Source: Thermoanaerobaculia bacterium
Lineage (GTDB): Bacteria; Acidobacteriota; Thermoanaerobaculia; Gp7-AA8
Length of the DNA stretch: 64,000 nt
Direction of reading: 5' to 3'
Assembly: GCA_035629865.1 (NCBI GenBank)
Contig: DASPHC010000055.1
Span: 70,940-134,939, forward strand
Positions 5,320 through 27,938 of this stretch are shown piece after piece (position 1 is the stretch's first letter; each line of letters begins with the position of its first letter). Under the pieces are notes generated by a model, which worked only from the letters and a program-made list of their open reading frames with translations, made no database searches and was not told where the DNA came from. The position numbers and the translations under genes were made by a program.

Positions 5320-5460
5320 CGCGGAGCTGGGGTCAGAGCTTCGTTTCGCGCGGAACAGAAGAACGAAGGTGTGACCCCAAGCGACGGGGCCGGCGGTTCC
5401 TCGGAGGGGTCAGAGCTTCGTTTTTCTCTCAGGAACAGCAGAACGAAGGTCTGACCCCTT
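5320..5460. repeat. REP-like palindromic elements (GGGGTCAGAGCTTCG / CGAAGGTCTGACCCC family), 2-3 copies in a divergent intergenic region
   Basis: Direct reading: ggggtcagagcttcgtttcgcg...cgaaggtgtgacccc and ggggtcagagcttcgtttttctc...cgaaggtctgacccc. Confidence 0.8.
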
Positions 5461-5559
5461 GACAGCCCCACTTCTGCCTTCTGCCCTCTGCCTTTCCCAC
5501 GTGGTCAATTCGCTGACCCTTTAGACACCTTTGGTGGGTTATATTCTCACCCCGCCATC

Positions 5560-8500
5560 ATGACAACGACCATCGAAGGTGTCGCTCCGGACGTCGCTCT
5601 TCCTCCTCGTTATCAGATTCGCCAAGTGCTGAAGCAGACTGCGGAGACTTCCGTGTTCCGGGTCTTCGACGTGCCGGATCGGCGCGATGAGGCGATCAAG
5701 ATCCTCTGTCACGAGGTCACGGATCCGCAACAGCTTCTCCGGTTCAAGACAGAGTTCGCGACGCTCGCCTCGCTCGAGCATGCGAGCGTGATCAAGGTCT
5801 ATGACTTCGGCGTCCTGCAGGACCGGTATCCCTACTTCACGATGGAGTTTTTCGCCGGGAAGCGGATCACGGAGTTTTTTGACGGACAGAATTGGGACGC
5901 GCTGTTCGACGTGATCCTGCAGATCGCCTCGGGGCTGCACCACATCCACCACCTCGGCATCGTGCACCTCGACCTGAAGCCGTCGAACATCCTGGTCTCC
6001 GAAGACGGCAAGGCGAAGATCATGGATTTCGGCCTGGCCATCGAGAGCCGGCGCGTATTCGACCGGAAGATCCGCGGGACGCTGCAGTACATGGCCCCCG
6101 AGGTACTGCGGCAGGACCGCGTCGACTCGCGCGCCGACCTCTACGCCCTCGGCATGACGCTCTACGAGACCGTCACCGGCGCCCTTCCGGGCTACGGCCG
6201 TCCGTCGATCGAAGTGATCCGCATGCACCTCGACGAGGAGATCCGCAGGCCTTCGTCGATCAACCCCCGCGTGCCAGAAGCGCTCGAGCAGATCATCATG
6301 AAGATGCTCGAGAAGGACCCGCGGCATCGCTTTCCCTCGGCCGCGGCGCTCCTGCAGGCGGTCGCCGAGGCGGCGGGGAAGAAGGCGCCGGCGGCGGAGC
6401 TGCTGGTCGGCCGCGGAGAGCTGTTCGCCGCGCCGCTGATCGGGCGGAAGAACGAAGTCGATCAGTTGATGCATCTGATCGTCGAGGCGCGCGACGGCCG
6501 CGGCGACGGGGTCATCCTCGCGGGCGGCGAGGGGATGGGGAAGAGCCGCATCGTGCGCGACGTGACGCTGCGCGCGCAGCTCGACGGCGGCCGCGTCTTC
6601 ACCGGCCGTTGCCCGGTGAACCGCAAGACCATCTACGCGCCGTTCTTCGACATCTTCCAGCAGATGGTGTCGGCGGTGAACCCGGAGGCCGACGTCTCCG
6701 AGGAGATCCGGCGCATCCTCCGTCCGGTGGTCGGCTCGGCGGGACCGGACACCAGCCCGCCGCGGCACGGCCAGAAGTTCCGTCTCTACAACCGGATCGT
6801 GCAGTCGATGCAGGACCTCTACGGATTCCTGAGCGTCGGCAGCGAGACCGGCGGCTCGCCGCTGATCCTGGTGATCGAGGACCTGCAGTGGGCCGATCCG
6901 TCGACCGCGGAGCTCTTCTCGTTCCTGGTGGGCGAGGCGAAGCAGAACAAGCTGCTGGTGATCGGCACGCTGACGCTCGACTCGCACGGCGAGGCGAGCA
7001 TCGAGTCGCCGTCGCCGAGCCTGGCGTTCTGGGAGCTGCGAGCCCGCGAGGCGTCGTTTCCGATCGTGCGGGTGGAGACGCTCACCGAGCCGCTCGTCCG
7101 CGAGCACGTGCAGTCGCTTCTCGGCGACACGAAAGTCTCCGACGAGCTCGTACGCTGGATGCTGTGGGAGTCGGCCGGCACGCCGCTGAACATCCGCCGC
7201 ATCATCGATTACCTCATCACTCACGACTATCTCCAGTGGACGCCGGGCGGCTGGACGGCCGACATGGACCGCATCCGGGTGCTGCGCATCCCCGGCGGCT
7301 TCGCGTCGATTCTGATGGAGAAGGCGGAGGCGCTGACGCCGGAGCAGCGGACGCTGCTCGACATCGCCTCGGTGGTCGGGGAGTCGATGGATCTCGAGCT
7401 GTTGACGCGGCTCTCGGACGCAACGCCGGAGGAGACGTTCGCGTCGCTGCGCGAGCTGACGCGCCTCGGTCTTCTCGACGAGTCGAACGACGGCAACATC
7501 ATCACCTTCCCGCAGATGCATCTGCGTGAGACGGTCTACAACGCCATGCCGGAGCGGCGGCGGACGGAGCTCCACCTGCGCGTCGGCGAGGCGATGGAGC
7601 CGGCGGCGAACGACGGCTCGACGCAGCTGGTCGGCCAGGTCGCGTATCACTTCTCCCGTGCGAACGACATCGAGCGCGGCACGCGCTGCTCGATCGAGGC
7701 GGGCGATCTCGCCTCGCGCACCCTGGCGCACGAGGAAGCGACGGAGTTCTACCGCGTCGCCCTGGAGATGATGGACCTGGGCGGCGTCGAGGAGGCGCGC
7801 AAGGCGGAGGTTCGCGAGAAGCTGGCCGATGCGTATTACCGCCGCGACGACTATCGCAGCGCCATCCATGCGTACCAGTTCCTCCTGAAGTCGATCCAGA
7901 GCCGCCATCCGGACGACGACGCGAACGTGGACGTCGCCCGGGTGATGAAGAAGATCGGCAAGGTGCTGGCGCGGCGCGGCGAGCAGGAAACGGCGATGAC
8001 GTACTACCAGGGCGCTCTGGCGATCTACGAGCGCCTCGGCCAGACCGTCGACGTCGCCGAGATGCTCAACCGCATCGCCTGGATGTACCGGATGCGCGAC
8101 GACTTCACCACCGCCCGCGAAACGGCGGAGCGCGCGCGGGTGATGCTGGAGACGATGGAGCCGACGGTCGTCTACGGCTACGTGAAGAACATCCTCGGCC
8201 TGATCGAGTTCGCCGGCGGCAACTGGCAGCGCTCGCGGGAACTGCTGACCGAATCGCTCGCGATCGGTGAGAAGCTCGGGAGCGAACAGCTCTGCAAGGT
8301 CGCCTCGATGAACCTCGGCAACACGGTCTGGAAGCTCGGCGAGTGGGAGACCGCGCTGCAGTACTTCCGCAAGAACCTGGAGCGCTCCGAGGGCGAAGGG
8401 GACCTGTGGGACCTCGTCACCGCCTACAACAACGTCGGCGTCGTCGAGTACGGCCGCGGAAACTTCCACGCCGCGGCGGAGCTGTTCGAGAAGAGCGTCC

Positions 8501-10866: not shown

Positions 10867-10935
10867 AGACTGGTTGCTGGTTGTCTGGGCGTTTCGGTTC
10901 TTGCGGGACGTATGCGCGACGTCATCGGGCAAAAT

Positions 10936-11198
10936 CCTTACGGCGAGACGCCGCCGCCGGCGGGACGCCGCCGGACCAGCCGACGAGGACGTCGGCGCTC
11001 CAGGCGCGGACCGCGGTTCTCGCGAATCGGGCCGTCCGCAGTTCTCGCGAATCGGGCCGTCCGCGGTTCTCGCGAATCGAAACGTCGGCATTCCAGCGCA
11101 CGACCGATGCTCGTGAACGGAGGTCCGCGCGTGGAGCGCCGACGTCCTCGTCGGCTGGCCCGGCGGCGTCCCGCCGGCGCACGGCGTCTCGCCGTAAG
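10936..11198. repeat. MITE-like element with ~75-bp near-perfect terminal inverted repeats (CCTTACGGCGAGACGCC...) and three internal tandem 24-bp repeats (GGTTCTCGCGAATCGGGCCGTCCGC)
   Basis: Left arm 10936-11010 is the reverse complement of right arm 11121-11198. Internal direct repeats sit at 11012-11085. A shorter copy occurs at 44645-44830. Confidence 0.8.
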
Positions 11199-11285
11199 GG
11201 TGGTGCCCAATCACCTGGTAGCGCGGTATCCTTGTCCTGGTGAACGCCGGTTCCGCCCGGCGGGTGTGCGAAAAGGGGAGGGCCA

Positions 11286-11482
11286 TGGCTGTCGTCGAAA
11301 CCGCCGTACGGGACCTCGAGAATATCCAGATGAGTCTCATCCGGCTTCACGCTCTTCTCGCGCAGCACACCATGTCGGTCTCCGACCGCCATCGCGTCGA
11401 CAGCTACTTCGACGCGTTCGCGTCCGATCTCGTCGGACTCGAAGAGTTTTTGCGCAGCATGCCCACCACTTCGCGAACGTAA
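11286..11482 (+). CDS. Small hypothetical protein (65 aa)
   Basis: ORF with a good RBS (aggggagggccATG); no recognisable motifs. Start chosen at the internal Met preceded by the RBS. Confidence 0.3.
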
Positions 11483-11488
11483 TCCGGC

Positions 11489-14038
11489 TCACGTTTCCGG
11501 CGGCGGCTCTCCGAGCATCGAGGCCTTGTTGCGGCGGAAGCGGCCCGTGGCGAGCAGCGCCGGCAGGAGCGTGATCGAGGCCAGGCAGCTCAACGCGATT
11601 CCGACGACCGAGGCGAGGCCGATCGACCGGACGCCGGGATAGTGCGAGATGGCGAAGGACGCGAAGCCGAGGATCGACATCAGCGCCGCGAGCACGACCG
11701 CGCGGCCGGTCTCCTGCGCGTTCTCCGGGAAATCGTCGGGCGACTCGTCGTAGCGCTGCAGCATGTACACGGCGTAGTCGGTCGCCGTGCCGACGAGCAT
11801 CAGTCCGACGAAGACGTTCATGAAGTTGAACTCGATCCCGGACGTGGCCATGAACCCGAGCATGCAGGTGCATCCGGCGATGAACGGCACGAAGACGAAG
11901 CATGCCCGCGCGAACGAGCGGAAGCCGCCCCAGACCAGCACGAACACGAGCACGAGACCGAGGAGGCTGGCCCGCGTTGCGTCGGTGCGGGTGATCGTAC
12001 GCAGCGTCTCGGAGATCAGGTTGACGCCGGTGAGCACCCCCTCGGGGTGCTTTCTGCGGAATTCCTGCATCGGCTCGGGAAGGAAGCGCGGCCACTTCCC
12101 GGTGGACGGATAGACGTAGACGATCGACATGTAGCCGGTGGGCGTTTTCTTGAGGAACCGCTGCAGCGATTCGCCGAGGCCGAGGCTCTGGAGCTTCTCG
12201 ACCGTGAGCGGCGCGCGCTGCCCGAGCGCCTGCGCGTACAGCGGCAGCACGTCGTCATACGCGTCGGGACGGAAGCCATTGTCCACGAGCGCCTGGCGGA
12301 ATGTCCGTTCGACGCGCGCGTACGAAAACTCGCCCTGCTCGCCGCGCCGGAGGCGGTCGATGACCAAGCCCTGCTGGCCCTCGCCGGGAAGGAAGGTCGT
12401 GATGGCCTGATAGGTGCCGATCACGTCGTCGGCCACGAGGCGATCGAGATCGGCGATGGCGGCTTCCGTTTTCCGGATGGCCTCACTCGGCGTCGCGCCG
12501 CGGACTCCGTACATCATCGCGTCGAACGACTGTCCGAAGCGGCCGGTCACCTCTTCCTGCATGCGCACGGCGTCGTTGCCGGTCGCGCGAAGCCCCTGCA
12601 GGCTGTCGTTGAAGCGGACGTCCTTGGCCGCGATCCCGGTGATGATGACGACGACGATCCAACCGATGATGATTGCCTTCGGTCTTGCGAGACTGGCCCG
12701 CACGATCCGGCCCGAGCCGAGAGCGTGCACGCGCAGCTTCCGCTTCGCGCCGCGCCGCCGCTCCACGAGGACCAGCACCGCCGGGAAGACGAAGATGACG
12801 CAGAGCAGGAAGATGAGGATGCCGCTGCCGGTGAGGAATCCGAGCTCTGTCATTCCCCGGAACTCGGTCGCGAGAAAGGCGTAGAACGTCGCCGCCGTGG
12901 TCAGCGCCCCGACGATGACGCCGGGGAGGGTATGGCGCATGAGCGTCCGGATCGACGCCTCGACCTCTGCGCCGCGATTGCGTTCGTCCACATAGCGCTC
13001 GTACAGCACGGTCATGAAATCGAGGCCGAGGCCGGCCAGGAGAGCGGCGAAGCCGGTGCTGGCCGCGGAGAGCGTTCCGTACATCATGGCGCCCAGGCCG
13101 AAGGTGATGATGATCGCAGCGACCATCGGTGCCGCCGCGTACAGCATCGCCGAGGGACGGCGGTAGGCGTAGAGATAGAGCAGCAGCACCCCGACCATCG
13201 AGGTGATGCTGTTGATCATCATGTCCTGCTGGATGATCTTCTCGTCCGTCGCCGCGATGGCGTAGCCGCCGGTGTAGCCGATCGTGGGCGGCGGCACTCC
13301 CTGGTTCCCTGCCGTGAACTCCTGCATCGCCTTCGCGGTGATGCCTCGCGTCTCCTGCATGAGGGCGCGGCTGAACGGCAGGTTCTGCGCGGCCTTGTGC
13401 GGCCGGCCGATGATGATGGCCGCCCCATGGTCGGAGGAGACGTAGTAGCCGCTGGAGAAGTCGATCTTCAGTCCGCCGCCGGCGTTCTGCAGCTTCTGCA
13501 TGTAGACCGGCAGGAGGTTGAACGGGTCGACGCGGACGATCTCCTTCATCGCGGTCGACTGCGGGGTCTGCAGGAGGGTCCGGTTGCGGGCGACCGACGC
13601 GCGGATGCCCTCGTCCGACAGCTTCTGCGCGACGGTGTCGAGCTGCGGGGGCGACAGGACGAGCATCGAGTAAGGGACGACCCGGTCGACGATCGCCAGC
13701 ATGTCGGGCAGTTTCCAGGTGACGCTTTCGATCCGGCTGGACTTGCCCAGCTCTTCGCCGATGCGGTCGAGCAGCGGGTAGTACGCGTCTGGCTCGCTTC
13801 CCTTCGGGAACTCGACCACGATGACGTGGAAGTCGAGCGTGCCGGTGTCTTTGAGCAGGTCGCGGAACTCGTTGACCTCTTTATTGCCGCGAGGAATGAG
13901 GTTGAGCACGTCGGGGTCGAGGCGCAGGCGCGTGGCCATCGCGCCCGAAAGCAGGACGATCACCAGCGCGACGACGAGGACGGCGCGCGGCCGGCGCAGG
14001 AGCAGCTCGGTGATGCGGTCCAGGAGGCGTCCGATCAC
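11489..14038 (-). CDS. RND-superfamily / MMPL-type membrane transporter (HpnN-like, 12 TM with two large periplasmic loops)
   Basis: 849 aa. N-terminal TM followed by a large loop, hydrophobic TM bundles, and duplicated TM1-loop-TM2-6 topology typical of RND/MMPL exporters. Confidence 0.75.
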   Translation of the reverse strand: MIGRLLDRITELLLRRPRAVLVVALVIVLLSGAMATRLRLDPDVLNLIPRGNKEVNEFRDLLKDTGTLDFHVIVVEFPKGSEPDAYYPLLDRIGEELGKSSRIESVTWKLPDMLAIVDRVVPYSMLVLSPPQLDTVAQKLSDEGIRASVARNRTLLQTPQSTAMKEIVRVDPFNLLPVYMQKLQNAGGGLKIDFSSGYYVSSDHGAAIIIGRPHKAAQNLPFSRALMQETRGITAKAMQEFTAGNQGVPPPTIGYTGGYAIAATDEKIIQQDMMINSITSMVGVLLLYLYAYRRPSAMLYAAAPMVAAIIITFGLGAMMYGTLSAASTGFAALLAGLGLDFMTVLYERYVDERNRGAEVEASIRTLMRHTLPGVIVGALTTAATFYAFLATEFRGMTELGFLTGSGILIFLLCVIFVFPAVLVLVERRRGAKRKLRVHALGSGRIVRASLARPKAIIIGWIVVVIITGIAAKDVRFNDSLQGLRATGNDAVRMQEEVTGRFGQSFDAMMYGVRGATPSEAIRKTEAAIADLDRLVADDVIGTYQAITTFLPGEGQQGLVIDRLRRGEQGEFSYARVERTFRQALVDNGFRPDAYDDVLPLYAQALGQRAPLTVEKLQSLGLGESLQRFLKKTPTGYMSIVYVYPSTGKWPRFLPEPMQEFRRKHPEGVLTGVNLISETLRTITRTDATRASLLGLVLVFVLVWGGFRSFARACFVFVPFIAGCTCMLGFMATSGIEFNFMNVFVGLMLVGTATDYAVYMLQRYDESPDDFPENAQETGRAVVLAALMSILGFASFAISHYPGVRSIGLASVVGIALSCLASITLLPALLATGRFRRNKASMLGEPPPET

Positions 14039-15735
14039 GCGGCCGTCCCGCTCATCCGCGTCAGTACGTGCTCGGTCATCGCCCTGGCCAGTACGTGCTC
14101 GCCCATGAACACCTCCCCAGCCTTCTCCTGGCGCAGCATCTCCGCCTCTTCATCGCTGTGCGTCCGCAGCACGATCTCGATCTTCGGGTTCAGCTTTCGG
14201 GCCACTTCGATCATCTTCCTCACCCCGATCGTGTCGGGCGTCGCGATCACGAGCATCGCCGCGCGCGCGACGTGCGCCTGGATGAGCACGGCCGGGTCGC
14301 TGGCATCGCCGGAGACGGCGTGGGCTCCCTCCTCGCGCAGCTTTTCGACGACGTCGCGGTTCTGCTCGGCGATGGTGTACGGGATGTTGCGCTCCCGCAG
14401 GGCCGCGGCGATCCGCCTCCCGACCCGGCCGTAGCCGACGATGGCCACGTGCCCGGTGAGCAGCGCGGCGTCGACGCTGGTCGGCAGCGCGGAAAGAGGG
14501 TCGGCCAGCCCTTCGAGCTTGCGCGCGAGCGCCGAGCGCGCGCGAATCCACCGCTGGGCCGGCTCGACGGCCGCGAAGACGGCGGGGTTGAGGGCGATCG
14601 AGATGAGCGCACCGGCGAGAATCAGGCTCCGTCCTTCCTCTGGCAGGAGACCGTACTCCACGCCGAGTCCGGCCAGGATGAACGAGAATTCGCCGATCTG
14701 GGCGAGGCTTGCACCGACGATGAGTGCGGTATTGAGCGGGTAGCGGAACAACAGCACGAGCGCGATCGCCGCCAGGGTCTTGCCGAAGATGATGATGGCC
14801 GCGACCGCCAGGACGGCCTTCGGCTCGCGGACCACCACGGCCGGGTCGAACAGCATCCCGACGGAGACGAAGAAGAGCACCGCGAAGGCGTCGCGCAGCG
14901 GCAGCGACTCGTCCGCCGCGCGGTGGCTGAAGCTCGATTCGCGCATCATCATCCCGGCGAAGAAAGCGCCGAGCGCGAAGGAGACGCCGAACAAGGCCGC
15001 CGCGCCATAGGCGACGCCGACCGCCGCTGCGACGACGCAGAGCGTGAACAGCTCCCGAGACCCGGTCTTCGCCACGAGCCAGAGGATCCGCGGGAAAAGA
15101 CGCCGGCCGACGACCAGCATGAGAACGATGAACGCCCCGACTTTCGCGAACGTCAGCGCCAGCGCCGCTCCGATGCCCGGCCCGCCGGCCGTGCCGTGCG
15201 CGGTGCCGCCGAGCACGCCGGCGAGGGGCGGCAGCAGCACGAGCACGAGGACCATGACCAGGTCTTCGACGATGAGCCAGCCGACCGCGATGCGGCCGTT
15301 GAACGTTTCCAGGGCGCCGCGCGATTCGAGGGCCTTGAGCAGGACTACCGTGCTGGCGACCGAGAGCGCGAGACCGAACACCAGTCCGGCGCCGAAGGTC
15401 CAGCCCCAGAGCATCGCCGTGACCGTGCCCAGCACGGTCGCCACAAGGATCTGCACCACGGCACCGGGGAGGGCAATGGCGCGGACGGAGGCGAGATCTT
15501 CCAGCGAGAAGTGCAACCCGACGCCGAACATCAGCAGCATGACGCCGATCTCGGCGAGCTGTCCGGCGAGGGCCACGTCCGCGACGAAGCCGCGCGTGTG
15601 CGGTCCGATAGCGATGCCGGCGAGGAGATAGCCGACCAGGGGAGGAAGGTTCAGCCGCGCCGCGATGAAGCCCAGGATCATCGCCAGGCCGAGGCCGGCC
15701 GCGATGGTCGTGATCAGGTTGACGTCGTGTGGCAC
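14035..15735 (-). CDS. Monovalent cation:proton antiporter (CPA2, Kef-type) with C-terminal RCK/TrkA-N NAD-binding domain
   Basis: Multi-TM N-terminal region (LPPLVGYLLAGIAIGP), C-terminal GHVAIVGYGRVGRRIA Rossmann motif. 4-bp overlap with the downstream RND gene. Confidence 0.8.
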   Translation of the reverse strand: MPHDVNLITTIAAGLGLAMILGFIAARLNLPPLVGYLLAGIAIGPHTRGFVADVALAGQLAEIGVMLLMFGVGLHFSLEDLASVRAIALPGAVVQILVATVLGTVTAMLWGWTFGAGLVFGLALSVASTVVLLKALESRGALETFNGRIAVGWLIVEDLVMVLVLVLLPPLAGVLGGTAHGTAGGPGIGAALALTFAKVGAFIVLMLVVGRRLFPRILWLVAKTGSRELFTLCVVAAAVGVAYGAAALFGVSFALGAFFAGMMMRESSFSHRAADESLPLRDAFAVLFFVSVGMLFDPAVVVREPKAVLAVAAIIIFGKTLAAIALVLLFRYPLNTALIVGASLAQIGEFSFILAGLGVEYGLLPEEGRSLILAGALISIALNPAVFAAVEPAQRWIRARSALARKLEGLADPLSALPTSVDAALLTGHVAIVGYGRVGRRIAAALRERNIPYTIAEQNRDVVEKLREEGAHAVSGDASDPAVLIQAHVARAAMLVIATPDTIGVRKMIEVARKLNPKIEIVLRTHSDEEAEMLRQEKAGEVFMGEHVLARAMTEHVLTRMSGTAA

Positions 15736-19390: not shown

Positions 19391-19700
19391 ACCCTTGGGG
19401 TCAAAGCTTCGCTCTTTCGCATTGCTGAGAAAATAGCGCGTAACGCTTGGGGTCAGAGCTTCGCTCTTTTGCATTCCCAGCTTATTTAGGGTCAGAGCTT
19501 TGTTCTTTCGCATTCCCGAGAAAATGAAAGCTCTGACCCCATTGGGGCCGGACGAGCCTGGGGCGGCAGAGCTTCGTTTTTCGCATTTCTGACGAAAAGC
19601 AACGCTCTGGCCTCCTTGTGTAAGGCCGGAACGGTTGTGGAGAAACGGACGGGCACTCGCTGCGGTGAGCAAAGCGACGCCGATTTACGCCGCCTCGTAC
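19385..19700. repeat. Array of at least four REP-like palindromes (GGGGTCAGAGCTT(C/T)G family) in alternating orientation (REPIN-like doublets), downstream of the RAYT pseudogene
   Basis: ggggtcaaagcttcgctctttcgc..., ggggtcagagcttcgctcttttgc..., gggtcagagctttgttctttcgcattcccgagaaaatgaaagctctgacccc, and others. Confidence 0.85.
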
Positions 19701-19774: not shown

Positions 19775-20832
19775 TCACGCGCGAAAAACGGCTGTTGCGG
19801 CGTCGAGGTGAGCGAGTAGTCCACCGCTGCCGGAGAGCTCGCGCTCGAATCTTCGGATGAGCGTCGAGATGTAGCCTTCACTTCGAAGCCGGAGGCCGGC
19901 GGCGATGCCGCGCAGCGTGAGCAGGCCCTCATGCCAGCCGAGCCACGCCGCGAGCCTGCGAAGCGCTCCACCGTTTCTCGAGCGAAGCGTGTCGGGCGAG
20001 ACTTTCGCGACGTGCGCGACGGCTTCGACAACGGCGGCCATTTTCGGGCGGCCGACTGCTCGCTGCACGACCGGCGTGTCGGTCGAACGCGGTTTGGACT
20101 CAACGATCTCGCGCATGGCGCGGGTCCAGCTTTCCGTACCGAGGTAAATCGCATGGGTGACCTGGTCCCAAAGGCACTCTTCCGACCCGATCCTGGCGTC
20201 CACGAACGAACGATAGGAGGCATACCGGTCGGCTTCGCCGGTGCCAAAAATTGCGAGTGCGGCGGTGAGATCGAACCAGTCGGGAGCCTTCTCGAGTCCG
20301 GCTGTGGCGCGATAGCTCGACCAGCGATAGTTCTCCGGCCGCTCCACCATGTTCGCGCGTACCGGGTTGAGTACGACGTAGCGGAGCACCTCCGCGAAGT
20401 AGAACTCCTTCTCGACCAGGACATTGTGGAAGCGTCCCTGAAAGAGATGCCCCGACCGGCGATGAGCTTTGTTGAACCATGCAGCGTATTTCCCATTCAG
20501 CCATTGCATGCCACGCGAGAGATTCGGCTGCGGTGTCTGGACGACGAGATGGAAGTGATTGGACATCAGCACCCAGGCGGTAACGGACCAGCCGAACCGT
20601 TTTACCGCTTTGCCGAGAACGAGAGGAATGCCTCTCGATCCTTGTTCGAGCGGAAGATGTCTCGCTGCTCGTTGCCGCGGGAGGTGACGTGGTGAAGAGC
20701 GTCTGCGTGATCGATGCGAAGTTGGCGTGCCATAACGCCACCGAGGATCCCTCGGCGCTTTTCGCATTCCGAGGAGTTCTTCGACTCGTAGACGAATGAC
20801 CCGCAGAACTCCTCGGATTGGAAACGGATCAC
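19775..20832 (-). pseudogene. REP-associated tyrosine transposase (RAYT, IS200/IS605-like HuH Y1 transposase) with C-terminal DnaA-C-like HTH extension; frameshifted near 20605-20612
   Basis: The N-terminal part (RIDHADALHHVTSRGNEQRDIFRSNKDREAFL) lies in ORF 20602..20832. The HuH motif LMSNHFHLVV and the catalytic-Tyr region NPVRANMVERPENYRWSSY lie in the other frame (19775..20836). The C-terminal 150 aa resemble a DnaA C-terminal HTH. REP elements flank both sides. Confidence 0.7.
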
Positions 20833-20879
20833 GCACCCATGTCTACGAACGGTAGAACGGCGTTCGCCAGTTCCTCGTC

Positions 20880-21000
20880 GAAGGGGTCAAAGCTTCGCTC
20901 TTTCGTGAGCCGTAAGAAAGCCAAAGCTCTGACCCCATACATACGGGGGTCAGAGCTTCGTTTTTTCGTTGGCTGCCGAAGATCAAAGCTCTGACCCCAG
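20880..21000. repeat. REP-like palindrome doublet (same family) upstream of the RAYT pseudogene
   Basis: ggggtcaaagcttcgctctttcgtgagccgtaagaaagccaaagctctgacccc and ggggtcagagcttcgttttttcgttggctgccgaagatcaaagctctgacccc. Confidence 0.85.
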
Positions 21001-21044: not shown

Positions 21045-22160
21045 CTAGTTCAGCTCCAGCGTCACTCTTCCGGCGACGCCCATCGGGTCGAGGCCGAGGA
21101 GGCGGGCGTCGAGGAAGAGGTCTTCGGGGCGGGTGGTGCCGAGGTGGGAGAGGGGGATCTCGAGGGAAAGGGACGTTGCGCCGCGGTCGAGGGTGCGGAC
21201 GGCCTCGCCCCAGGCCACGCCGTTGCGGGCGCCGTCGGCGAGGATGACGTCGAAACGGTACGTGCCGGCGATGGCGACGTCGGCGGGGAGGCTGACGCGG
21301 AGGACGTCACCAATCACTTCGGTCGTCACTTTGCCGAGCCGCGCGGAGCCGCGCTCGGCGACCAGCTCGCCCGAGCCGGTACGGAGGAAGCGGGCGCCTT
21401 TGGCGCTCTTTCCGTCCGCTTCGAAACGGATCTGCCACGCGCCGGCAGTCTGCTCCGGCAGGTCGGCCACGGTCGCCGAGTAGACGCCGGGGGCGACCTC
21501 AGCGAGCGGCACGGAGGCGAAGGCCTTGCCGTTCGGCGAGGCGAGGCGGGCGGTGACGGTGGCGCCTTCGATCGCCGTATCGCCGTCGCGCAGCTCGGCG
21601 TGCAGCGTCACCGGCTCACCCGGCTGGCGGGAAAGCGGCGCGGCCCAGGTCGCGAAAGTGACCGGGCTGTCCGGCTCGGCGGCGATCACCGTCACGCCGT
21701 CGATATCCTGCGGCAGGTCGAGCTCGAGCTGGTAGCTGGCCGCGGCCGTGCGCATGACGTGCAACACTTCCTGTGCACCCGGCGCGGTAACGCCGAGCTC
21801 CGAGGTCTCGGCCGGATCGAGCTGGAAACGGCGCAGTCCGCGCTCGACCGAGCCGCGCTCGTTCGGCTGCAGCACGGCCCCGGTCGGGGTGACGAGGCGC
21901 GCCGCGACGGACGACGTGCCGTTGCCGCGATGGGCGGGGATCGTCCAGATGATCATGCCGCTGTCGCCGGCGGCCGGGATCTCGACCTTCGCGTTAGCGG
22001 CAGTGCGGGGAATCGAGCGGGCGAACATCCGCGAGATGTTGGCCGGCGCGTGTGCGGCCGGTTCTTCGTACTTCGTCCCGGCGTCGAACCGGCCCGTCAC
22101 GTCACCGGCGAAAGCGGCCGGCGCGAGGGTGAGGAGCAGTGCCAATGCGTTCTTCTTCAT
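21045..22160 (-). CDS. Secreted hypothetical protein (signal peptide; Ala/Gly-rich beta-rich domains)
   Basis: N-terminal MKKNALALLLTLAPAAFAG signal peptide; no catalytic motif recognised. Confidence 0.5.
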   Translation of the reverse strand: MKKNALALLLTLAPAAFAGDVTGRFDAGTKYEEPAAHAPANISRMFARSIPRTAANAKVEIPAAGDSGMIIWTIPAHRGNGTSSVAARLVTPTGAVLQPNERGSVERGLRRFQLDPAETSELGVTAPGAQEVLHVMRTAAASYQLELDLPQDIDGVTVIAAEPDSPVTFATWAAPLSRQPGEPVTLHAELRDGDTAIEGATVTARLASPNGKAFASVPLAEVAPGVYSATVADLPEQTAGAWQIRFEADGKSAKGARFLRTGSGELVAERGSARLGKVTTEVIGDVLRVSLPADVAIAGTYRFDVILADGARNGVAWGEAVRTLDRGATSLSLEIPLSHLGTTRPEDLFLDARLLGLDPMGVAGRVTLELN

Positions 22161-22170
22161 GGTCGTCTCC

Positions 22171-22995
22171 TCAGAAGTCGGTCGCCAGCGAGTCGCCGAT
22201 CTTGCGATAGTCGTTGCGGCGGTTGTGGTGATGGTTGGCCAGGGTGGTGAACCAGACGACGCCGACGCCCTGGGCGCTGTACTGCGAGACCATCCCGTCG
22301 TCCTCGCCCGGCATGCCGGCGACGCCGGAAAGTGTCGCCAGGCCTGTATCCTCGGCGTGGATGAAGTCGTTCCAGAGGCCGGTCCCGGCGATGTTGTAGA
22401 CCGTCTTCGGAAGTGCGGGACGCCCGGAAGTACCCTTGAGGTAGTAGGTGTTGTAGTAGCTCATCGAGCTGGTGGTGCAGTTCTTCGTCGAGTCGTTGTT
22501 CTGCCCGACGAGGTCGACCAGCCAGCCGGTGAGCCACGAGCCGGAGAGCGTCCCGGCCAGGTTCGCCGCCTCGGAGCCCTTATTGGGAGGGGCGATGGAG
22601 TTCACCCAGCGGATGCGGTTGATGATCGGCTGATAGCGGGTGTCGTAGGTCGGGTTCGACATGATCCAACGGATGACCACGCCGCCGAACGAATGCGTCT
22701 CGATGACGATGTCGTCGATCGCGTTCGCGTTCATCCAGTTGTAGATCTGGCCGGCCACCGTGCCGCCCGCGACCCACATGTACTGCGTGCCGTCGTACGC
22801 GCAGATGAGGTAGGGGATGGTGAATCCCTTCGTCGTCGCCCGAATCATGTCCTCGCCCCAGTACGCCCGGGCGACGCTTTGCTGGGCGAGGTTCGAACCG
22901 CCCTTGCCGTGGATGAAAACGACGCCGGTCTTCGCGTAAGCCGACGTGGTGAGAAGTACGGCGATCGCCGCTGTGAGCAAGCCCCTTCGAATCAT
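22171..22995 (-). CDS. Secreted alpha/beta-hydrolase, lipase/esterase-like
   Basis: Signal peptide (LLTAAIAVLLTTSAYA), oxyanion region VVFIHGKGGS, nucleophile elbow THSFGG (GxSxG). Confidence 0.6.
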   Translation of the reverse strand: MIRRGLLTAAIAVLLTTSAYAKTGVVFIHGKGGSNLAQQSVARAYWGEDMIRATTKGFTIPYLICAYDGTQYMWVAGGTVAGQIYNWMNANAIDDIVIETHSFGGVVIRWIMSNPTYDTRYQPIINRIRWVNSIAPPNKGSEAANLAGTLSGSWLTGWLVDLVGQNNDSTKNCTTSSMSYYNTYYLKGTSGRPALPKTVYNIAGTGLWNDFIHAEDTGLATLSGVAGMPGEDDGMVSQYSAQGVGVVWFTTLANHHHNRRNDYRKIGDSLATDF

Positions 22996-23129
22996 TGCGT
23001 CCTGCCTCCTGATGGCGGAGCACTACTTCAACGAGGATGCCGCACGAGTTTTCAATGAGTTACGTGGTCAGAGGGTCCGCGATTGAACCTATTGACGGAT
23101 GAATGATGGTTCAATGTTGACCGGCGGGT

Positions 23130-25142
23130 CTATTTTTGGTCCGTGTCGCAGCTCGGGACGAAGTAAAGCCGGATGGATTTCCCTACCCGACGTCGCGACG
23201 AGTGATTTTTCAGCCAGGCGAGTGAGCCGTGGTGTTTCTCGATCCAGGACATTTCGCTGATCGCGATCCAGCCAGTGACGCAGCGTGCGGGGATCTTCTC
23301 GGCGTGAGGCAGGCGCTGTTTCCATCCGGTCGAGCCCCAGTAGTCGACGTAGAGCGGCGAGAGGTTTTCGGTTTCGGCAACGGCAGCGAGGCGGAGGAGA
23401 TCCTGCCCCCAGTCGAGATTGCTGTCGGCGGCGACGCGCTCGGGATGTCTGCCCGCGACTTCGTTGAACCAGGCGAGGTAATCGGGGTGGGCGAGCGTCG
23501 TTCCGGCGAAAAACCAGACCAGCAGAGCCGCGACCGTGACTCTCGCCGCCTTGCCTCGATGCCACAGCCAGACCACCGCGACCGCGGCGGCGAGGGCCAG
23601 GAAGGGATAGAGGGGGAGGATGTGCCGGACGCCGATGTTGATCCTGCTGGTCATCGCGACGGCGAGCATGGCCAGAGGGATGAGGGCAAGGGCGAGGTTC
23701 TCGGGAGTACTCCCGGTCTGTAGTTTCTTCGCGGTGCGAGTTGCTGGTTGCTGGTTGCCTGTGATTCCGGGTCTTGGCCGGGCCCCGAGCAGCAGGCCGC
23801 CCACCATCGCCAGCGCCAGGAACGCCAGCGGTGTCTTGTAGAAGAGGATGACCGGAAAGTAATACCACCAGCCGGTATTGCGGGACTCGCCGAAGAGGTA
23901 GGCGGGATGGCCGACGGCGGAGTGGCGGCGGACGTACTCGGCGCCGGCAATGTACGACGGAGCGAGGATCGGGATGTGGGTGGCGATCCACTGGAGGGAG
24001 GCCCGGAACGGCTCGGCGACTCGCTGGCTGAGCGTCGGTTTCGGGACCGGCGGCGCTCCGGCGAGCGTGTTTCCCTTGCGACCGGCGAGAGGCGATGGGT
24101 AACCGGCCGCTTTGGCCCAATCGACGAAGTCGATGCCGGCGATCCCGTGCTTTCGCTCTACCTCGCCGGCGAAGTCGTAGTAGCGGTCGAGCAGGTCGGG
24201 GCGTACCCACTCGTAGCCCGGCTCGCGCGCGTACCTGGCGGCGATGTGCTGGGGAGCTTCGCCGTCGAAGGTATCGAGGCGGACGCTGTTCAGCAAGCCG
24301 GTCTCGCCGCGGTAGGCGAGCCAGATCAAGAGGATAGCCACGATTCCGGCGGCCAGAAAACGAACGACGAAGGGGTCACACCTTCGTTCTTTGATGTCGG
24401 GGTCAGAGCTTCGCTCTTTCGCCCCGATGGGGTCAGAGCTTTGTTTTTCCGCCGGCGAGGAAAGAACGAAGGTGTGACCCCTTCGGAGCAGGAAGAGCGA
24501 AGCTCTGACCCCAAGGAGGACGAGGAAGCCGGCGCCGAAGAAGATCAGGAAGGAGAATTTGCCGAGGAGGCCGGCGCCGAGGGCGAGGCCGAAGAGGAGG
24601 GTGTGCTTCCAGTTGGGCTGCTCCAGCCAAAGGGCGAAGGTGAACAGTGCGGCGGCGGTGCCGGCGGCGGCCGCCATGTCGGTGGTGGTCAGGCCGGCGT
24701 GGGCAAGGACCGGCGGGAGTGCGCCGAAGAGGGCGGCGGCGATGACGCCCGCGAGATCGCCGGCCAGCCTGCGGGTCCAGAGGAAGACGATCGCCAGCGC
24801 CAGGAGGAAGAAGGGGAGGTTGCCGGCGCGGGCGGCGGTGAGGTTGCGGGGATACTCTTCGTTGCGCTCGAGAAGCTGGTTGCCTCGCGCGGCGCGGCTG
24901 AGGCTCCGGTCGATCTCCGCGCCATCGAGCCAGGCGTCGATGGCGAAAAATATCCGGGCCAGCGGCGGATGTTCGCGATCGAGCGTGTACCGCCCCTCAT
25001 CCAGCCATTGGAAGCCGGCGGCAACGTGAATCGGCTCGTCGATGGTCTGGCTGAAGAGCGTCCAGGTCGACGCAATCCGGATTACTGGCACCAGGACCAG
25101 GACCGCGAGCACGATCGCAAGCCGCCGCCTCGTCATCTGCAT
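23130..25142 (-). CDS. Polytopic membrane glycosyltransferase, GT39/PMT_2 (ArnT-like) family, carrying an in-frame insertion of REP elements in a loop
   Basis: About 12 TM helices. TM1 followed by a loop with the DE motif (TIDEPIHVAAGFQWL...EHPPLARIFF). Start chosen at MQMTRRRLAIVLAVLV. Positions 24355-24525 (REP family) translate in-frame as ...SSPAEKQSSDPIGAKERSSDPDIKERRCDP... Confidence 0.5.
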   Translation of the reverse strand: MQMTRRRLAIVLAVLVLVPVIRIASTWTLFSQTIDEPIHVAAGFQWLDEGRYTLDREHPPLARIFFAIDAWLDGAEIDRSLSRAARGNQLLERNEEYPRNLTAARAGNLPFFLLALAIVFLWTRRLAGDLAGVIAAALFGALPPVLAHAGLTTTDMAAAAGTAAALFTFALWLEQPNWKHTLLFGLALGAGLLGKFSFLIFFGAGFLVLLGVRASLFLLRRGHTFVLSSPAEKQSSDPIGAKERSSDPDIKERRCDPFVVRFLAAGIVAILLIWLAYRGETGLLNSVRLDTFDGEAPQHIAARYAREPGYEWVRPDLLDRYYDFAGEVERKHGIAGIDFVDWAKAAGYPSPLAGRKGNTLAGAPPVPKPTLSQRVAEPFRASLQWIATHIPILAPSYIAGAEYVRRHSAVGHPAYLFGESRNTGWWYYFPVILFYKTPLAFLALAMVGGLLLGARPRPGITGNQQPATRTAKKLQTGSTPENLALALIPLAMLAVAMTSRINIGVRHILPLYPFLALAAAVAVVWLWHRGKAARVTVAALLVWFFAGTTLAHPDYLAWFNEVAGRHPERVAADSNLDWGQDLLRLAAVAETENLSPLYVDYWGSTGWKQRLPHAEKIPARCVTGWIAISEMSWIEKHHGSLAWLKNHSSRRRVGKSIRLYFVPSCDTDQK
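24355..24525. repeat. REP-like palindromes embedded in-frame inside the GT39-like gene
   Basis: ggggtcacaccttcgttctttg...ggggtcagagcttcgctctttcgcc...ggggtcagagctttgtttttcc...cgaaggtgtgacccc...agcgaagctctgacccc. Confidence 0.8.
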
Positions 25143-26749
25143 TCCGGAATGGAGTAGAGCCGCAGGGAGGCGCCGATCCGGCGCACCGGCTGGTGCGCGT
25201 CGAGCCATGCATACGCCTGCGGCTCCTCGGCAATCTTCTTCATCTCGCTCAGCACCACCCAGCCGGTCACACACTGGCCGAGCGGCAGCGGCCGGGCGTG
25301 CGGGATGTGCACGCCCGGATCGGCCCAGCCGAAATACGCAAGATGGATCGGGGCGAGGCGCTCCCGTTCGACCACGCCGGCGAGCCGGTAAAGGTCCTGT
25401 CCCCAGTCGAGGTTGCTGTCGGAGGCGATCCGCTCCGGATGCCTGCCGGCCATCTCATTGAAATAGCTAAGGTAATCGGGATGGGCGAGGGCCGTGGCGA
25501 CGAAGAGCCAGCCCGCCAGCGTCACCGAGAGCACCTGTCCGGTACGGCTGCCTTTCCACCCCCAGACCACTGCCACGGCCGCTGCCATCGCCAGGAGCGG
25601 ATAGATCGGGAGCAGGTGCCGGACGCCGATGTTGATCCGGCTCGTCATCGCCATGCCCAGCATCGCCACGGGGATGAGAGCCAGATCCCAACGTCCCAGC
25701 CGCGCGAGTATCACCATCCCCGTCCCGGCGAGCAGCAGGAAGGCGATCGGCGTCTTGAAGAAGAGGATGACCGGAAAGTAATACCACCAGCCCCCCTGCC
25801 GAATCTCGCCGAAGAGGAAGGCCCGGTGATCTCCGCCGGAGTGGTCCGCCAGATACTGCAACCCGCTGAAGTAGCCTGTTACGTTGAACTTATAGAGAGC
25901 GATGACCATCAGGACGGTGGCCGTAGCAGCGACGCCGAGCTGGATGGGGTCACACCTTCGTTCTTTCATCGTGATGGGGTCAGAGCTTCGTTTTTCTGTT
26001 TTGGCGAAAAAAGCAAAGCTCTGACCCCGGCGCGACCGCGAAGAACGAAGGTCTGACCCCAAATCGACCGAAGAACGAAGGTCTGACCCCAAGTCGCCCC
26101 CGGGCGAAGAACGAAGGTGTGACCCCAGGAGAACGAGTGCCCCGACGCCAAAGTAGGCGATGAACGAGAATTTCGACGCCATCCCGACCGTGAGCGCAAG
26201 GCTGAGGACGGCGGCCCGGCTCCACCGCGGCTCGTCGAGCCAGCGGGAGAAGGCGTAGAGCGCGGCTGCGACGGTCGCGGTGGCGGCCATGTCCGTCGTC
26301 GCCAGGCCGGCATGGGCGAGGGTGGGGGGGAGGGCGCCGAAGAGGGCGACGGCGAGAAGGGCCGTGCCGGTCCCGGCCACCCAGCGGGTCCAGAGGAAAA
26401 CGATCGCCATCGCCAGGAGGAACCAGGGGAGGTTCGCCACTCTGGCTGCTGTTACGTTGCGGACGACGTGGGCGTCGCGGTAGACGATCGGCGCGCCCTG
26501 CTGGACCGGCGCGAGGGCCGGGTCGAGCCGCGTTCCCGCCAGCCAGGCATCGAGCGCGAAGCCGATGCGCGCGAGCGGCGGGTGCTCCGGGTCGACGCGA
26601 TACGAGTCCTGCGTCAGCCACTCCAGGCCGGCGGCGATGTGATACGGCTCGTCGGCGGTCAGGCTGAAGACGGGATAGGTCGCCGCAATGCGCGCGATCG
26701 CGACCAGGGTCAGGATCGCGAGCAGTGCGGCGACACGTCCACGGGACAT
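25133..26749 (-). CDS. Paralogous GT39/PMT_2-like membrane glycosyltransferase, also with in-frame REP insertions at the equivalent loop
   Basis: The N-terminus MSRGRVAALLAILTLVAIARIAATYPVFSLTADEPYHIAAGLEWL...EHPPLARIGF parallels the downstream paralogue. Positions 25960-26135 translate in-frame as ...DLRSSRSRRGQSFAFFAKTEKRSSDPITMKERRCDP... The gene overlaps the next by 10 bp. Confidence 0.5.
   Translation of the reverse strand: MSRGRVAALLAILTLVAIARIAATYPVFSLTADEPYHIAAGLEWLTQDSYRVDPEHPPLARIGFALDAWLAGTRLDPALAPVQQGAPIVYRDAHVVRNVTAARVANLPWFLLAMAIVFLWTRWVAGTGTALLAVALFGALPPTLAHAGLATTDMAATATVAAALYAFSRWLDEPRWSRAAVLSLALTVGMASKFSFIAYFGVGALVLLGSHLRSSPGGDLGSDLRSSVDLGSDLRSSRSRRGQSFAFFAKTEKRSSDPITMKERRCDPIQLGVAATATVLMVIALYKFNVTGYFSGLQYLADHSGGDHRAFLFGEIRQGGWWYYFPVILFFKTPIAFLLLAGTGMVILARLGRWDLALIPVAMLGMAMTSRINIGVRHLLPIYPLLAMAAAVAVVWGWKGSRTGQVLSVTLAGWLFVATALAHPDYLSYFNEMAGRHPERIASDSNLDWGQDLYRLAGVVERERLAPIHLAYFGWADPGVHIPHARPLPLGQCVTGWVVLSEMKKIAEEPQAYAWLDAHQPVRRIGASLRLYSIPECR
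25960..26135. repeat. REP-like palindromes (4-5 copies) embedded in-frame inside the second GT39-like gene
   Basis: ggggtcacaccttcg..., ggggtcagagcttcgtttttctg...caaagctctgacccc, cgaaggtctgacccc x2, cgaaggtgtgacccc. Confidence 0.8.
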
Positions 26750-26759
26750 CGCCAGCGGA

Positions 26760-27938
26760 TCAGAGCCGGTCCGTCAGGATGGTCTTGGCGATGGTGGCGA
26801 GCTGCATGTTGCTCGTCCCCTCGTAGATCTGGCCGACCTTCGAATCGCGCCAGAACTTCTCGACCGGGTACTCCTTCGTATAGCCGTTGCCGCCGTAGAG
26901 CTGCACCGACAGCGACGTCACCTTCTCGGCCACCTGCGAGGAGAAGAGCTTGGCCATGGCCGCCTCGCGGAGGAACGGCCTGCCGGCGTCCTTGAGGCGC
27001 GCCGCGTTGTAGACCATCAGGCGGGCCGCCTCGAGCTCGGTCGCGGCCTGGGCGATCTGGAACTGCACGCCCTGGAAGTCGGCGATCCGCTGGCCGAACT
27101 GCTTCCGCTCTTTCGTGTACGCGATCGCGTACTCGAGGGCGCCGCGGGCGACGCCGAGCATCTGCGCGCCGATGCCGATCCGCCCCTCGTTGAGCGTCTC
27201 GATCGCGATCTTGTAGCCCTTGCCGGCCTCGCCGAGGACATTCTCCTTCGGCACGCGGCAATCCTCGAGGATCAGCTCGCAGGTCGACGAGGCGCGGATG
27301 CCGGTCTTGTCTTCCTTCTTGCCGACCTCGAAGCCGGGAAAGTCGCGCTCGATGATGAAGGCGGTGATGCCTTTGTAGCCGGCGTCAGGATTGGCGTTCG
27401 CGAAGACGATGAAGATCCCCGCCTCGGCGGCATTGGTGATCCAGAGCTTCCGTCCGTTGAGGACCCAGTGGTCTTCCTTGTCCTCGGCCTTGGCGGCCAG
27501 GGCGAACGCATCGGATCCCGATCCTCCCTCGGAGAGCGCATACGCGCCGACCGTGTCGGAGGCCAGCATTTTCAGGTACTTGGAGCGCTGGTCTTCGTTC
27601 CCCCAGCGGACGATGGCGTTGTTGACGAGGGTGTTCTGGACGTCGACCAGGACGCCGCAGGAGGCGTCGACGTGCGACAGCTCCTCGACGATCAGGACGG
27701 CGTTGAAGAAGGTCGAGCCGGCGCCGCCGTACTGGTCGGGAATCTCGACGCCCATGATGCCGAGCTCGAAGAAGCTCTGGATCAGCTCTTTCGACATCGC
27801 CGCGTCATGGTCCATCTGGTGGACGAGCGGGCGAATCCGCTCGATGGCGAAATCGCGCACGCTCTGCTGGAACATCTGTTCTTCTTCGGAAAGCACCGTC
27901 AGCGGCGCGCCGGGAGTCAGCTCGAGTGTGGTGGTCAT
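26760..27938 (-). CDS. Acyl-CoA dehydrogenase (short/branched-chain type)
   Basis: 392 aa, typical ACAD motifs (GGSGSDAFALAAKAE, YEGTSNMQLATIAK, C-terminal catalytic Glu region). Confidence 0.85.
   Translation of the reverse strand: MTTTLELTPGAPLTVLSEEEQMFQQSVRDFAIERIRPLVHQMDHDAAMSKELIQSFFELGIMGVEIPDQYGGAGSTFFNAVLIVEELSHVDASCGVLVDVQNTLVNNAIVRWGNEDQRSKYLKMLASDTVGAYALSEGGSGSDAFALAAKAEDKEDHWVLNGRKLWITNAAEAGIFIVFANANPDAGYKGITAFIIERDFPGFEVGKKEDKTGIRASSTCELILEDCRVPKENVLGEAGKGYKIAIETLNEGRIGIGAQMLGVARGALEYAIAYTKERKQFGQRIADFQGVQFQIAQAATELEAARLMVYNAARLKDAGRPFLREAAMAKLFSSQVAEKVTSLSVQLYGGNGYTKEYPVEKFWRDSKVGQIYEGTSNMQLATIAKTILTDRL

Follow-up and report, generated by a model that had tools for sequence, protein, structure and literature searches.

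REP palindromes translated in frame in the same predicted cytoplasmic loop of two tandem GT39/PMT_2-like glycosyltransferase genes from Thermoanaerobaculia

Results

REP clusters lie inside two adjacent glycosyltransferase genes

Analysis of a 64,000-nucleotide stretch of a soil Thermoanaerobaculia metagenome-assembled genome (MAG; contig DASPHC010000055.1, positions 70,940 to 134,939, hereafter referred to as the window) revealed two tandem genes for GT39/PMT_2-like glycosyltransferases that are read straight through clusters of repetitive extragenic palindromes (REPs). Both clusters are translated in frame, and both occupy the DNA for the same loop of the encoded proteins, between the sixth and the seventh transmembrane helices (TM6 and TM7). 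We consider it quite probable that the case as a whole is one of selfish insertions of REPs and their paired, hairpin-forming versions (REPINs), which persist where cytoplasmic loops are permissive. The host genes and the elements within them are as follows:

25133–26749, minus strand: gene2, GT39/PMT_2-like GT-C glycosyltransferase of the short class, 538 amino acids (aa), HYI09607.1
23130–25142, minus strand: gene1, GT39/PMT_2-like GT-C glycosyltransferase of the long class, 670 aa, HYI09606.1
24368–24513, minus strand: REP cluster in gene1, five units starting at 24372(+), 24399(+), 24429(+), 24481(-) and 24512(-)
25945–26127, minus strand: REP cluster in gene2, six units starting at 25946(+), 25976(+), 26028(-), 26060(-), 26090(-) and 26126(-)
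24429–24481: inner REPIN-like hairpin of the gene1 cluster, 53 nt, of the same length as the intergenic hairpins, 77–83% identity
25976–26028: inner REPIN-like hairpin of the gene2 cluster, 53 nt, 81–85% identical to other hairpins
26039–26098, minus strand: 30-nt REP unit duplicated in tandem and in frame; the copies, 93% identical, read LGSDLRSSVD and LGSDLRSSRS

An initial inspection of the letters and translations, the sequence-only reading, had claimed that both open reading frames (ORFs) pass through the palindromes free of stop codons. This was confirmed, the peptides quoted there being exact and the coordinates correct to within about 15 nt. The gene1 cluster is translated as GVRASLFLLRRGHTFVLSSPAEKQSSDPIGAKERSSDPDIKERRCDP (residues 211–257) and that of gene2 as GSHLRSSPGGDLGSDLRSSVDLGSDLRSSRSRRGQSFAFFAKTEKRSSDPITMKERRCDP (residues ~209–268), each as the predicted TM6–TM7 cytoplasmic loop, so that the two inserts do share one loop of the two tandem paralogues, as had been proposed. 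The palindromes were likewise found to be imperfect and to differ between the genes in number and orientation: some arm pairs are 100% complementary over 20–25 nt and others 79–88%, while on the coding strand gene1 carries two forward and three reverse units and gene2 four forward and two reverse. The suggestion of REP turnover within the coding sequence also held, since the number and order of units differ and the 30-nt tandem duplication in gene2 adds exactly ten codons.

Forward units of both genes are translated in three different frames, and the five reverse units all in one, as (K)ERSSDP or ERRCDP. Read-through by itself is weak evidence, because the gene1 cluster leaves two of the three coding-strand frames open and that of gene2 leaves one. 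When a length divisible by three is also required, the chance of both genes staying intact is, by our arithmetic, about 0.22 x 0.11 = 0.025. The GC content at third codon positions (GC3) is 0.64 in the gene1 insert versus 0.84 in the rest of the gene, and 0.56 versus 0.86 in gene2. The inserts keep a non-coding-like composition, which we read as a mark of foreign origin. The predicted mRNA folds of the clusters reach -103.9 kcal/mol (z = -8.1) in gene1 and -114.8 kcal/mol (z = -7.3) in gene2.

The palindromes form a REP family accompanied by a RAYT-like gene

The window was searched for the REP core GGGGTCASASCTTCG with at most two mismatches, and the expectation was derived from 100 shuffles. 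The search returned 25 matches versus 0.74 expected, a count reached in none of the 100 shuffles. The basic unit is about 22 nt long and reads TGGGGTCA[G/C]A[G/C]CTTCGYTYTT; its inverted pairs give hairpins of 50–54 nt that are mutually 76–87% identical. Two of the five clusters are those inside gene1 and gene2, and the other three are intergenic, two of them flanking a gene that resembles those of REP-associated tyrosine transposases (RAYTs):

5329–5458: intergenic REP cluster with two hairpins, between a Ser/Thr kinase gene (2798–5245, minus strand) and an ORF at 5539–11340 (minus strand)
19397–19612: intergenic REP cluster, 3' flank of the RAYT-like gene
20883–20998: intergenic REP cluster with two hairpins of 53–54 nt, 5' flank of the RAYT-like gene
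19778–20733, minus strand: RAYT-like Y1 (HUH) transposase gene, frameshifted, Pfam Y1_Tnp E = 2e-9, 2.3 kb from the glycosyltransferase genes

This is the single Y1/HUH transposase gene of the window. Its ORF (19775–20836, minus strand) matches Pfam Y1_Tnp and the NCBIfam family 'REP-associated tyrosine transposase', its N-terminus lying in another frame. After repair of the frame the protein covers positions 4–146 of the 146 in the NCBIfam profile REP_Tyr_transpos (NF047646), and HUH-like 'HFH' and 'YRWSSY' motifs are visible. The gene is split into two frames by a 1-nt deletion near 20617/20618 (TT-CTC versus TTCCTC in homologues). The shift may be a programmed one or stem from a sequencing error, or the copy may be dead. 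Five metagenome loci (L149, L108, L147, L102 and L143) were retrieved solely by a REP 15-mer. In four of them a full-length RAYT-like homologue adjoins it (75, 58, 49 and 44% identity in L149, L108, L147 and L102, respectively; those of L149 and L108 are intact), and L143 has a homologue fragment beside it (58% over 130 aa). The same REP family thus occurs in soil metagenome contigs. This pairing of REPs with a RAYT-like gene is the REPtron arrangement of REP/RAYT systems (PMC2817692, PMC3116915, PMC3733652), and the palindromes of the window, which are present in high copy number, lie mostly between genes and go together with a RAYT-like gene, are true REPs.

The window REP core was found in none of 80 GT39 loci of GTDB species representatives, among which the source genome is not included. 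Candidate in-ORF copies in the metagenome loci stand upstream of the recognised domains and probably precede the true start codons; two of these, in a beta-lactamase (L121) and an M16 peptidase (L145), were for this reason not counted. An Rfam scan of the clusters gave nothing above threshold, with sub-threshold matches to generic hairpin (miRNA precursor) models only, and a terminator scan flagged merely small internal stems of the REP units. The ORF at 5539–11340, next to the first intergenic cluster, encodes 1933 aa without a Pfam or NCBIfam match and is overlapped on the opposite strand by an ORF of 1768 aa.

Both inserts map to a predicted cytoplasmic loop of ArnT-like enzymes

Both proteins are deposited as 'glycosyltransferase family 39 protein' from a Thermoanaerobaculia MAG, on an NCBI contig of 240,988 nt, and recur in JGI records, one of which is a contig of 89,746 nt. 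The annotated start of gene1 (25142) lies within the ORF 23130–25274 (minus strand), and the product is identical to HYI09606.1. Pfam PF13231 (PMT_2) scored 31.9 and 31.0 bits for the pair versus a gathering cut-off of 26.1, and no NCBIfam equivalog matched. The two proteins share 47–48% identity by BLASTP, alike in their N-terminal and C-terminal parts, and 55–56% in a global alignment of the conserved parts; their coding flanks are 64–66% identical at the nucleotide level and 52–57% at third positions. Gene1 has an additional periplasmic subdomain of about 100 aa. In the AlphaFold2 (AF2) model of gene2, 11 membrane helices are followed by a C-terminal domain, and its best Foldseek matches in the PDB were ArnT (5F15/5EZM), along with Pmt4, ALG12 and OST/PglB, all of them GT-C enzymes. 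Residues D33, E34 and P35, an acidic motif in the first outer loop, are nearly invariant in the homologue alignment. With the PMT_2 scores above the cut-off and this architecture, the predicted fold is that of an ArnT-like GT-C enzyme.

The alignment comprised 118 homologues together with gene1 and gene2 (120 sequences). In it, both clusters fall at the homologous position, between the 'KFSF..LVLLG' segment of TM6 and TM7, where in the homologues a short Arg-rich connection joins the helix after the invariant KFSF motif to the next helix. The span that begins just past KFSF and includes TM7 is 33–61 residues in those homologues where TM7 could be located, versus 77 in gene1 and about 92 in gene2, and the surplus residues are exactly the REP-coded ones; the window REP-coded peptides are absent from all 118 homologues. 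All 40 family-invariant alignment columns are kept in both genes, 30 of them downstream of the insert.

The AF2 models had a mean predicted local distance difference test score (pLDDT) of 88.7 and a predicted template modelling score (pTM) of 0.87 for gene2, with pLDDT <50 at residues 224–255, and of 91.2 and 0.91 for gene1, where the insert scored 52–63 versus >90 in its flanks. Low confidence was limited to the inserts, TM7 of gene2 and one further lineage-specific loop of gene1, and each insert was modelled as a low-confidence loop joining two helices. Following the order of helices, the N-terminus (MSRGR) is placed inside, the DEP loop outside, then TM2–TM6, the insert loop inside and the C-terminal domain outside. 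Every predicted inside loop contains Arg or Lys, and Arg, Lys, Ser, Asp and Pro abound in the peptides of the inserts. The TM6–TM7 loop is predicted to be cytoplasmic because of helix order and parity, with the C-terminal domain outside as in ArnT; together with the ArnT-like fold and the positive-inside rule, the models bear out the earlier suggestion that the loop is cytoplasmic and permissive.

Some further features of the two genes deserve mention. The stop of gene2 overlaps the start region of gene1:

25133–25142, minus strand: overlap of the gene2 stop with the gene1 start region, coding strand ATGCAGATGA

The overlap is of the ATGA type if the second ATG is the start; the NCBI and JGI starts differ by two residues. 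Judged from this stop/start arrangement, it suggests translational coupling of gene2 and gene1. Within conserved coding sequence in the 3' part of gene2 (window ~25292–25318), about 150–185 nt upstream of the gene1 start, there is a perfect palindrome with a 10-bp stem, CCGGGCGTGC-ACATCCC-GCACGCCCGG on the coding strand. The further low-confidence loop of gene1 is a second lineage-specific insert, PRPGITGNQQPATRTAKKLQTGSTPEN (residues 454–479, window 23706–23783), in the TM8–TM9 cytoplasmic loop. A short repeat, GTTGCTG, occurs in the DNA of this insert, which borders on the palindrome TCGGGAGTACTCCCGG (23701–23716). The insert is not a member of the main REP family, and the homologue P0025 has an unrelated insert in the same loop.

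Syntenic orthologues lack this REP family

Three syntenic loci (L201, L202 and L205) were found, each with one GT39 gene (P0019, P0026 and P0010, respectively) between an acyl-CoA dehydrogenase (ACAD) gene and a gene for a 274-aa protein. The window REP family is absent from all three. The sequence-only reading had recommended alignment to orthologues lacking the insert, and it is these loci and the 118 homologues, which include the three orthologues and none of which carries the window family, that provide it. As the syntenic orthologues are without this family, the REP clusters were most simply derived in the lineage of the window, and probably arose separately in gene1 and gene2: the two inner hairpins are 81% identical to each other, no closer than to the intergenic copies (76–87%), and several REP arm pairs are 85–100% complementary, versus the 52–57% third-position identity of the paralogue flanks. 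We infer the independence of the two insertions, and likewise the mechanism of mobilisation and the neutrality of the inserts.

The loop of these orthologues contains other palindromic DNA. P0026 has the palindrome GGCGGGCTTTAGCCCGCC at the TM6–TM7 loop (L202, 892–909). P0019 has five tandem 9-nt palindromic repeats CCTATAGGN at the same loop (L201, ~1030–1080), translated PIGPIGPISPIGPIGP and AT-rich in a genome of 66% GC. P0010 (L205) has a degenerate REP unit of the GTAG-tagged type described below (AGLKPAA) in TM6–7.

Several observations concern the locus itself. The ACAD/274-aa slot holds two GT39 genes in the window (21045–27938) versus one in L201, L202 and L205, and in L202 a methyltransferase gene and a GT1 gene stand where the window has REP – RAYT-like gene – REP. 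P0026 (L202, 258–1937) is the closest orthologue of gene1, with 70% identity. TM7 and the beginning of the periplasmic subdomain appear to be missing from it, and 'RERRALARRATTTATTSGAAAF', which contains GGCGGGCTTTAGCCCGCC, stands in their place. Loss of one helix would invert the remaining topology, and P0026 may thus be a decaying gene or the site of a local rearrangement. Its first ~47 residues are 70% identical to gene2 and 62% to gene1. A blastn hint had raised the idea that the single GT39 gene of the relatives is a chimera, by unequal crossover, of a gene2 N-terminus and a gene1 C-terminus. This was rejected because segment identities show P0026 and P0019 to be gene1 orthologues throughout, bar the weak signal in those first 47 residues. 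Between syntenic orthologues the GT39 genes are 56–70% identical, whereas the C-terminal fragment of the ACAD differs, by our count, at 3 of 123 positions and the remaining locus has about 78% nucleotide identity. Such fast evolution of the GT39 genes suggests relaxed constraint on them.

A second, GTAG-tagged REP family occupies predicted cytoplasmic loops of other GT39 genes

A second REP family, which is GTAG-tagged (ACGTAGGGCGGGCTTCAGCCCGCC / ACGTAGG-GCGGGCTTCAGCCCGC-C), is translated in frame inside six GT39 genes. Locus L030 (DASPMO010000043.1, 7655–13701, Thermoanaerobaculia MAG SMAG_U12094) carries four ATGA-coupled tandem GT39 paralogues, each with a GTAG REP:

L030 gene A: TM6–7, single unit, peptide GGLKPA
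L030 gene B: TM6–7, doublet, peptide TGFSPSRDGLKPV
L030 gene C: TM10–11, doublet, peptide RASARLSRGWRAEAR
L030 gene D: TM4–5, doublet, peptide TGFSPSWGGLKPA

Locus L204, from the same genome, contributes a fifth GT39 gene (P0072), with a GTAG doublet in TM6–7, and three more doublets occur elsewhere in L204. The sixth gene is P0010 of L205. The sites in the six genes are TM6–7 in four, TM4–5 in one and TM10–11 in one, all cytoplasmic by parity. With gene1 and gene2 included, all eight genes with in-frame REPs verified at the DNA level carry them in a predicted cytoplasmic loop, and in all eight the helices and periplasmic loops are free of REPs. At the TM6–7 position, P0048, P0054 and P0066 likewise show REP-like peptide signatures. 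As to the share of REP sites that fall in GT39 genes, it is two of five clusters in the window and five of nine sites in L030 plus L204 (41.6 kb), of which GT39 genes make up about 19% of the sequence; in the 19.8 kb of L030, all eight REP units are in or just upstream of the GT39 array.

One of the doublets of L204 (14227–14261 of DASPMO010000092.1) lies inside a called gene for 237 aa (14019–14732, minus strand) without a Pfam match; either an unrelated protein may have received an in-frame insertion as well, or the gene call may be spurious. At the 3' ends of the GT39 genes of L028 and L003, the conserved C-terminal motif YRRIGK(S/T)IRLY is encoded by a perfect palindrome with a 13–14-bp stem (TACAGGCGGATCG...CGATCCGCCTGTA), which is either a chance coding palindrome or a terminator in the last codons.

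Discussion

We propose that the palindromes of the window are a genome-specific REP/REPIN family, that is non-autonomous single-strand hairpins of the kind mobilised by RAYTs (HUH/Y1), and that copies of it landed in the DNA for the TM6–TM7 cytoplasmic loop of both adjacent GT-C genes. There the clusters would have multiplied in place by nested insertion and by the 30-nt tandem duplication. They would have persisted for the reason that their total length keeps the frame, the frame used is free of stops, and the encoded peptide of 47–60 residues, rich in Arg, Ser, Asp and Pro, is hydrophilic and presumably unstructured. A cytoplasmic loop between helices would tolerate extra length, and the positive-inside rule would favour the positive charge. 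Insertions elsewhere in GT39 proteins would have been purged by selection, which in our proposal is why the two paralogues share the loop; the enzymes would stay intact, with the REP peptide making up nearly the whole loop.

A number of points weigh against this proposal. The 53-nt hairpin is not a multiple of three, so that a lone insertion would shift the frame. The RAYT-like protein scored 69.4 bits unrepaired and 79.3 bits after frame repair against NF047646, for which the cut-off is 80. Since the gene is frameshifted, current mobility needs another genomic copy, or else the events are old. The units of the window begin TGGGGTCAG and bear neither of the tags (GTAG, CGTC) that mark the described super-families (PMC3733652). 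The other palindromes at the loop of the gene1 orthologues P0010, P0026 and P0019 fit a targeted or inherited site as well as they fit survivorship. Finally, gene1 and gene2 appear intact on the evidence of their sequences alone.

The alternative that survives best is an inherited or targeted landing pad. A palindrome in the loop would predate the gene1/gene2 duplication and the split of the species, and the REPs resident in each genome would overwrite it or nest in it, since hairpins would draw in more insertions of their kind; ancestry or targeting, and not the filtering of hits, would then lie behind the common position. We regard this as plausible and compatible with our account, and hold it as a tentative possibility. 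It would account for the palindromic DNA that each gene1 orthologue in the ACAD – GT39 – 274-aa slot holds at the loop, for the REPs at TM6–7 in both sister paralogues A and B of L030, and for the nested look of the two window clusters, in each of which a perfect outer arm pair surrounds the inner 53-nt hairpin. However, most homologues have a short Arg-rich loop without a palindrome, and perfect stems of at least 7 bp, counted across all homologues, are not enriched there (1.32 per kb in the loop region versus 1.07 in the rest), long stems alone standing out. Moreover, the REPINs of L030 genes C and D sit in other cytoplasmic loops, which points to filtering by type of loop rather than to one inherited site, and the inner hairpin of gene1 is not the closest relative of that of gene2, nor vice versa.

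It is unlikely that the hairpins or the peptide have been domesticated and are kept as useful. They might pause ribosomes between TM6 and TM7 and so aid membrane insertion, shield the operon mRNA from 3'-5' decay where the coupled genes are without intergenic space, switch surface-glycan enzymes on and off or change their length as units come and go, or serve for recombination from one paralogue to another. The roles in mRNA stability and pausing raised by the sequence-only reading have only the very high predicted stability of the mRNA folds to support them. Several arm pairs are still 100% complementary inside coding DNA. All five reverse units use one 'SSDP/RCDP' frame, five of the seven spacings between units of the same orientation are multiples of three (p ~0.05, a binomial estimate), and REP sites are concentrated in GT39 genes. 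Against this, nearly all homologues function without the insert, and the number, order, family and frame of the units vary freely between genes. Identity matrices of the paralogues revealed no discordance between N-terminal and C-terminal modules, and hence no mosaic signal of shuffling by REPs. A HMMER search with the REP-coded peptide against 1.84 billion representative proteins found no conserved counterpart, only two spurious low-complexity eukaryote-like matches, in a search that single units or dimers would escape. The concentration in GT39 genes is partly a matter of ascertainment, as the loci were picked for those genes.

A broader form of this idea, which we hold to be improbable, is that REP/REPIN occupancy of the cytoplasmic loops of GT-C arrays is itself selected, the units serving as internal mRNA-stability or pausing elements where there is no intergenic space. 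In an equally improbable variant, RAYT-driven gain and loss of units would vary or switch fast-evolving surface-glycan enzymes. If true, selected occupancy would explain why both paralogues of the window, all four of L030 and the unlinked P0072 are occupied, and why different REP families are found in the same loop of orthologues.

We find it very unlikely that the insertions destroyed the function of genes whose frames are still open only through the short time elapsed. The perfect arm pairs do suggest recent events, and the apparent lack of TM7 in the related P0026 indicates that the region can decay. Yet the chance that both genes would be in frame and stop-free is the ~0.025 given above, every invariant residue is retained, and the cytoplasmic position of all eight verified REP sites, in loops that by our estimate make up <1/10 of the protein, is expected only under continuing selection. 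Misassembly, in which short reads were joined or collapsed at the repeated palindromes, is highly improbable. REPs are repetitive, and the MAG was built from short reads (related records have k141-style contig names). But the same proteins occur in the NCBI contig and in JGI records, the clusters are distinct from one another and from their intergenic counterparts, the repeats in them all fall well short of the 141-nt k-mer, the two halves of either gene agree in the orthologue class they match, and the analogous REPIN-bearing P0072 is present on three contigs.

Insertion of REPs into coding sequence had been called rare by the sequence-only reading. That holds within a genome, but the kind of event is already documented (PMC3733652, PMC10969869). 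Di Nocera et al. (2013; PMC3733652) described intragenic REPs as singles, dimers and clusters in known genes, the clusters encoding 43–82 aa. Both uvrA paralogues of Opitutus terrae were hit, and two Xanthomonas species shared nearly the same insertion site in recB; the authors proposed neutrality, the inserts lying in flexible loops. Like those REP-decorated ORFs, gene1 and gene2 contain short, usually extragenic, RAYT-linked palindromes. Unlike the GTAG/CGTC REPs of that study, the window family (TGGGGTCAGAGCTTCG...) has no such tag, and the hosts here are multi-pass membrane GT-C enzymes in which the verified sites are all in predicted cytoplasmic inter-helix loops. One loop, moreover, is held by different families in orthologues and paralogues, and the lineage is Thermoanaerobaculia (Acidobacteriota). 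The Rickettsia palindromic elements (RPEs; Ogata et al. 2000, 2002, reviewed in PMC10969869) are similar in being selfish palindromes in frame in coding genes, with an extra peptide compatible with the fold. They are about 150 bp long, encode a conserved peptide, and occur in reduced intracellular genomes with no known RAYT, whereas the window units are ~22 nt and their hairpins ~53 nt long, are read in several frames and have a RAYT-like gene nearby. REPIN–RAYT systems and the bacterial interspersed mosaic elements (BIMEs) of E. coli (PMC3116915, PMC2817692, PMC8266576) share with the window the ~50-nt inverted doublets, the alternating or tandem units and the Y1/HUH gene flanked by REPs. They are described as extragenic, unlike the clusters in gene1 and gene2. 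The RAYT-like gene here also differs from that of REPIN–RAYT systems, being frameshifted and encoding ~319 aa with a C-terminal extension. In Neisseria, Haemophilus and Campylobacter, glycosyltransferase genes undergo phase variation through simple sequence repeats. There too repeats lie inside genes for surface-glycan enzymes, and a change of copy number could alter the frame, but the units here are palindromes of 27–36 nt and not homopolymers or tetramers; we take this comparison only as a lead for the idea of selected occupancy.

What is new, then, is the REP family and its host context, GT-C membrane enzymes of Thermoanaerobaculia, in a kind of event known from other bacteria. That cytoplasmic loops are occupied repeatedly, in paralogues and orthologues and by more than one REP family, is unusually clear here. 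The case indicates that REPs and REPINs can persist inside genes for multi-pass membrane proteins, where a REP-coded Arg-rich peptide becomes the loop, and it provides a natural experiment on which parts of GT-C enzymes tolerate insertions. It extends RAYT-like/REP pairs to Thermoanaerobaculia, within the Acidobacteriota. For annotation, it cautions that where a high-GC genome shows odd loops of low GC3 and low complexity, these may be translated repeats. Should the crowding of REPs into GT39 arrays turn out to go beyond ascertainment, this would suggest that REP dynamics are tied to the evolution of surface-glycan enzymes.

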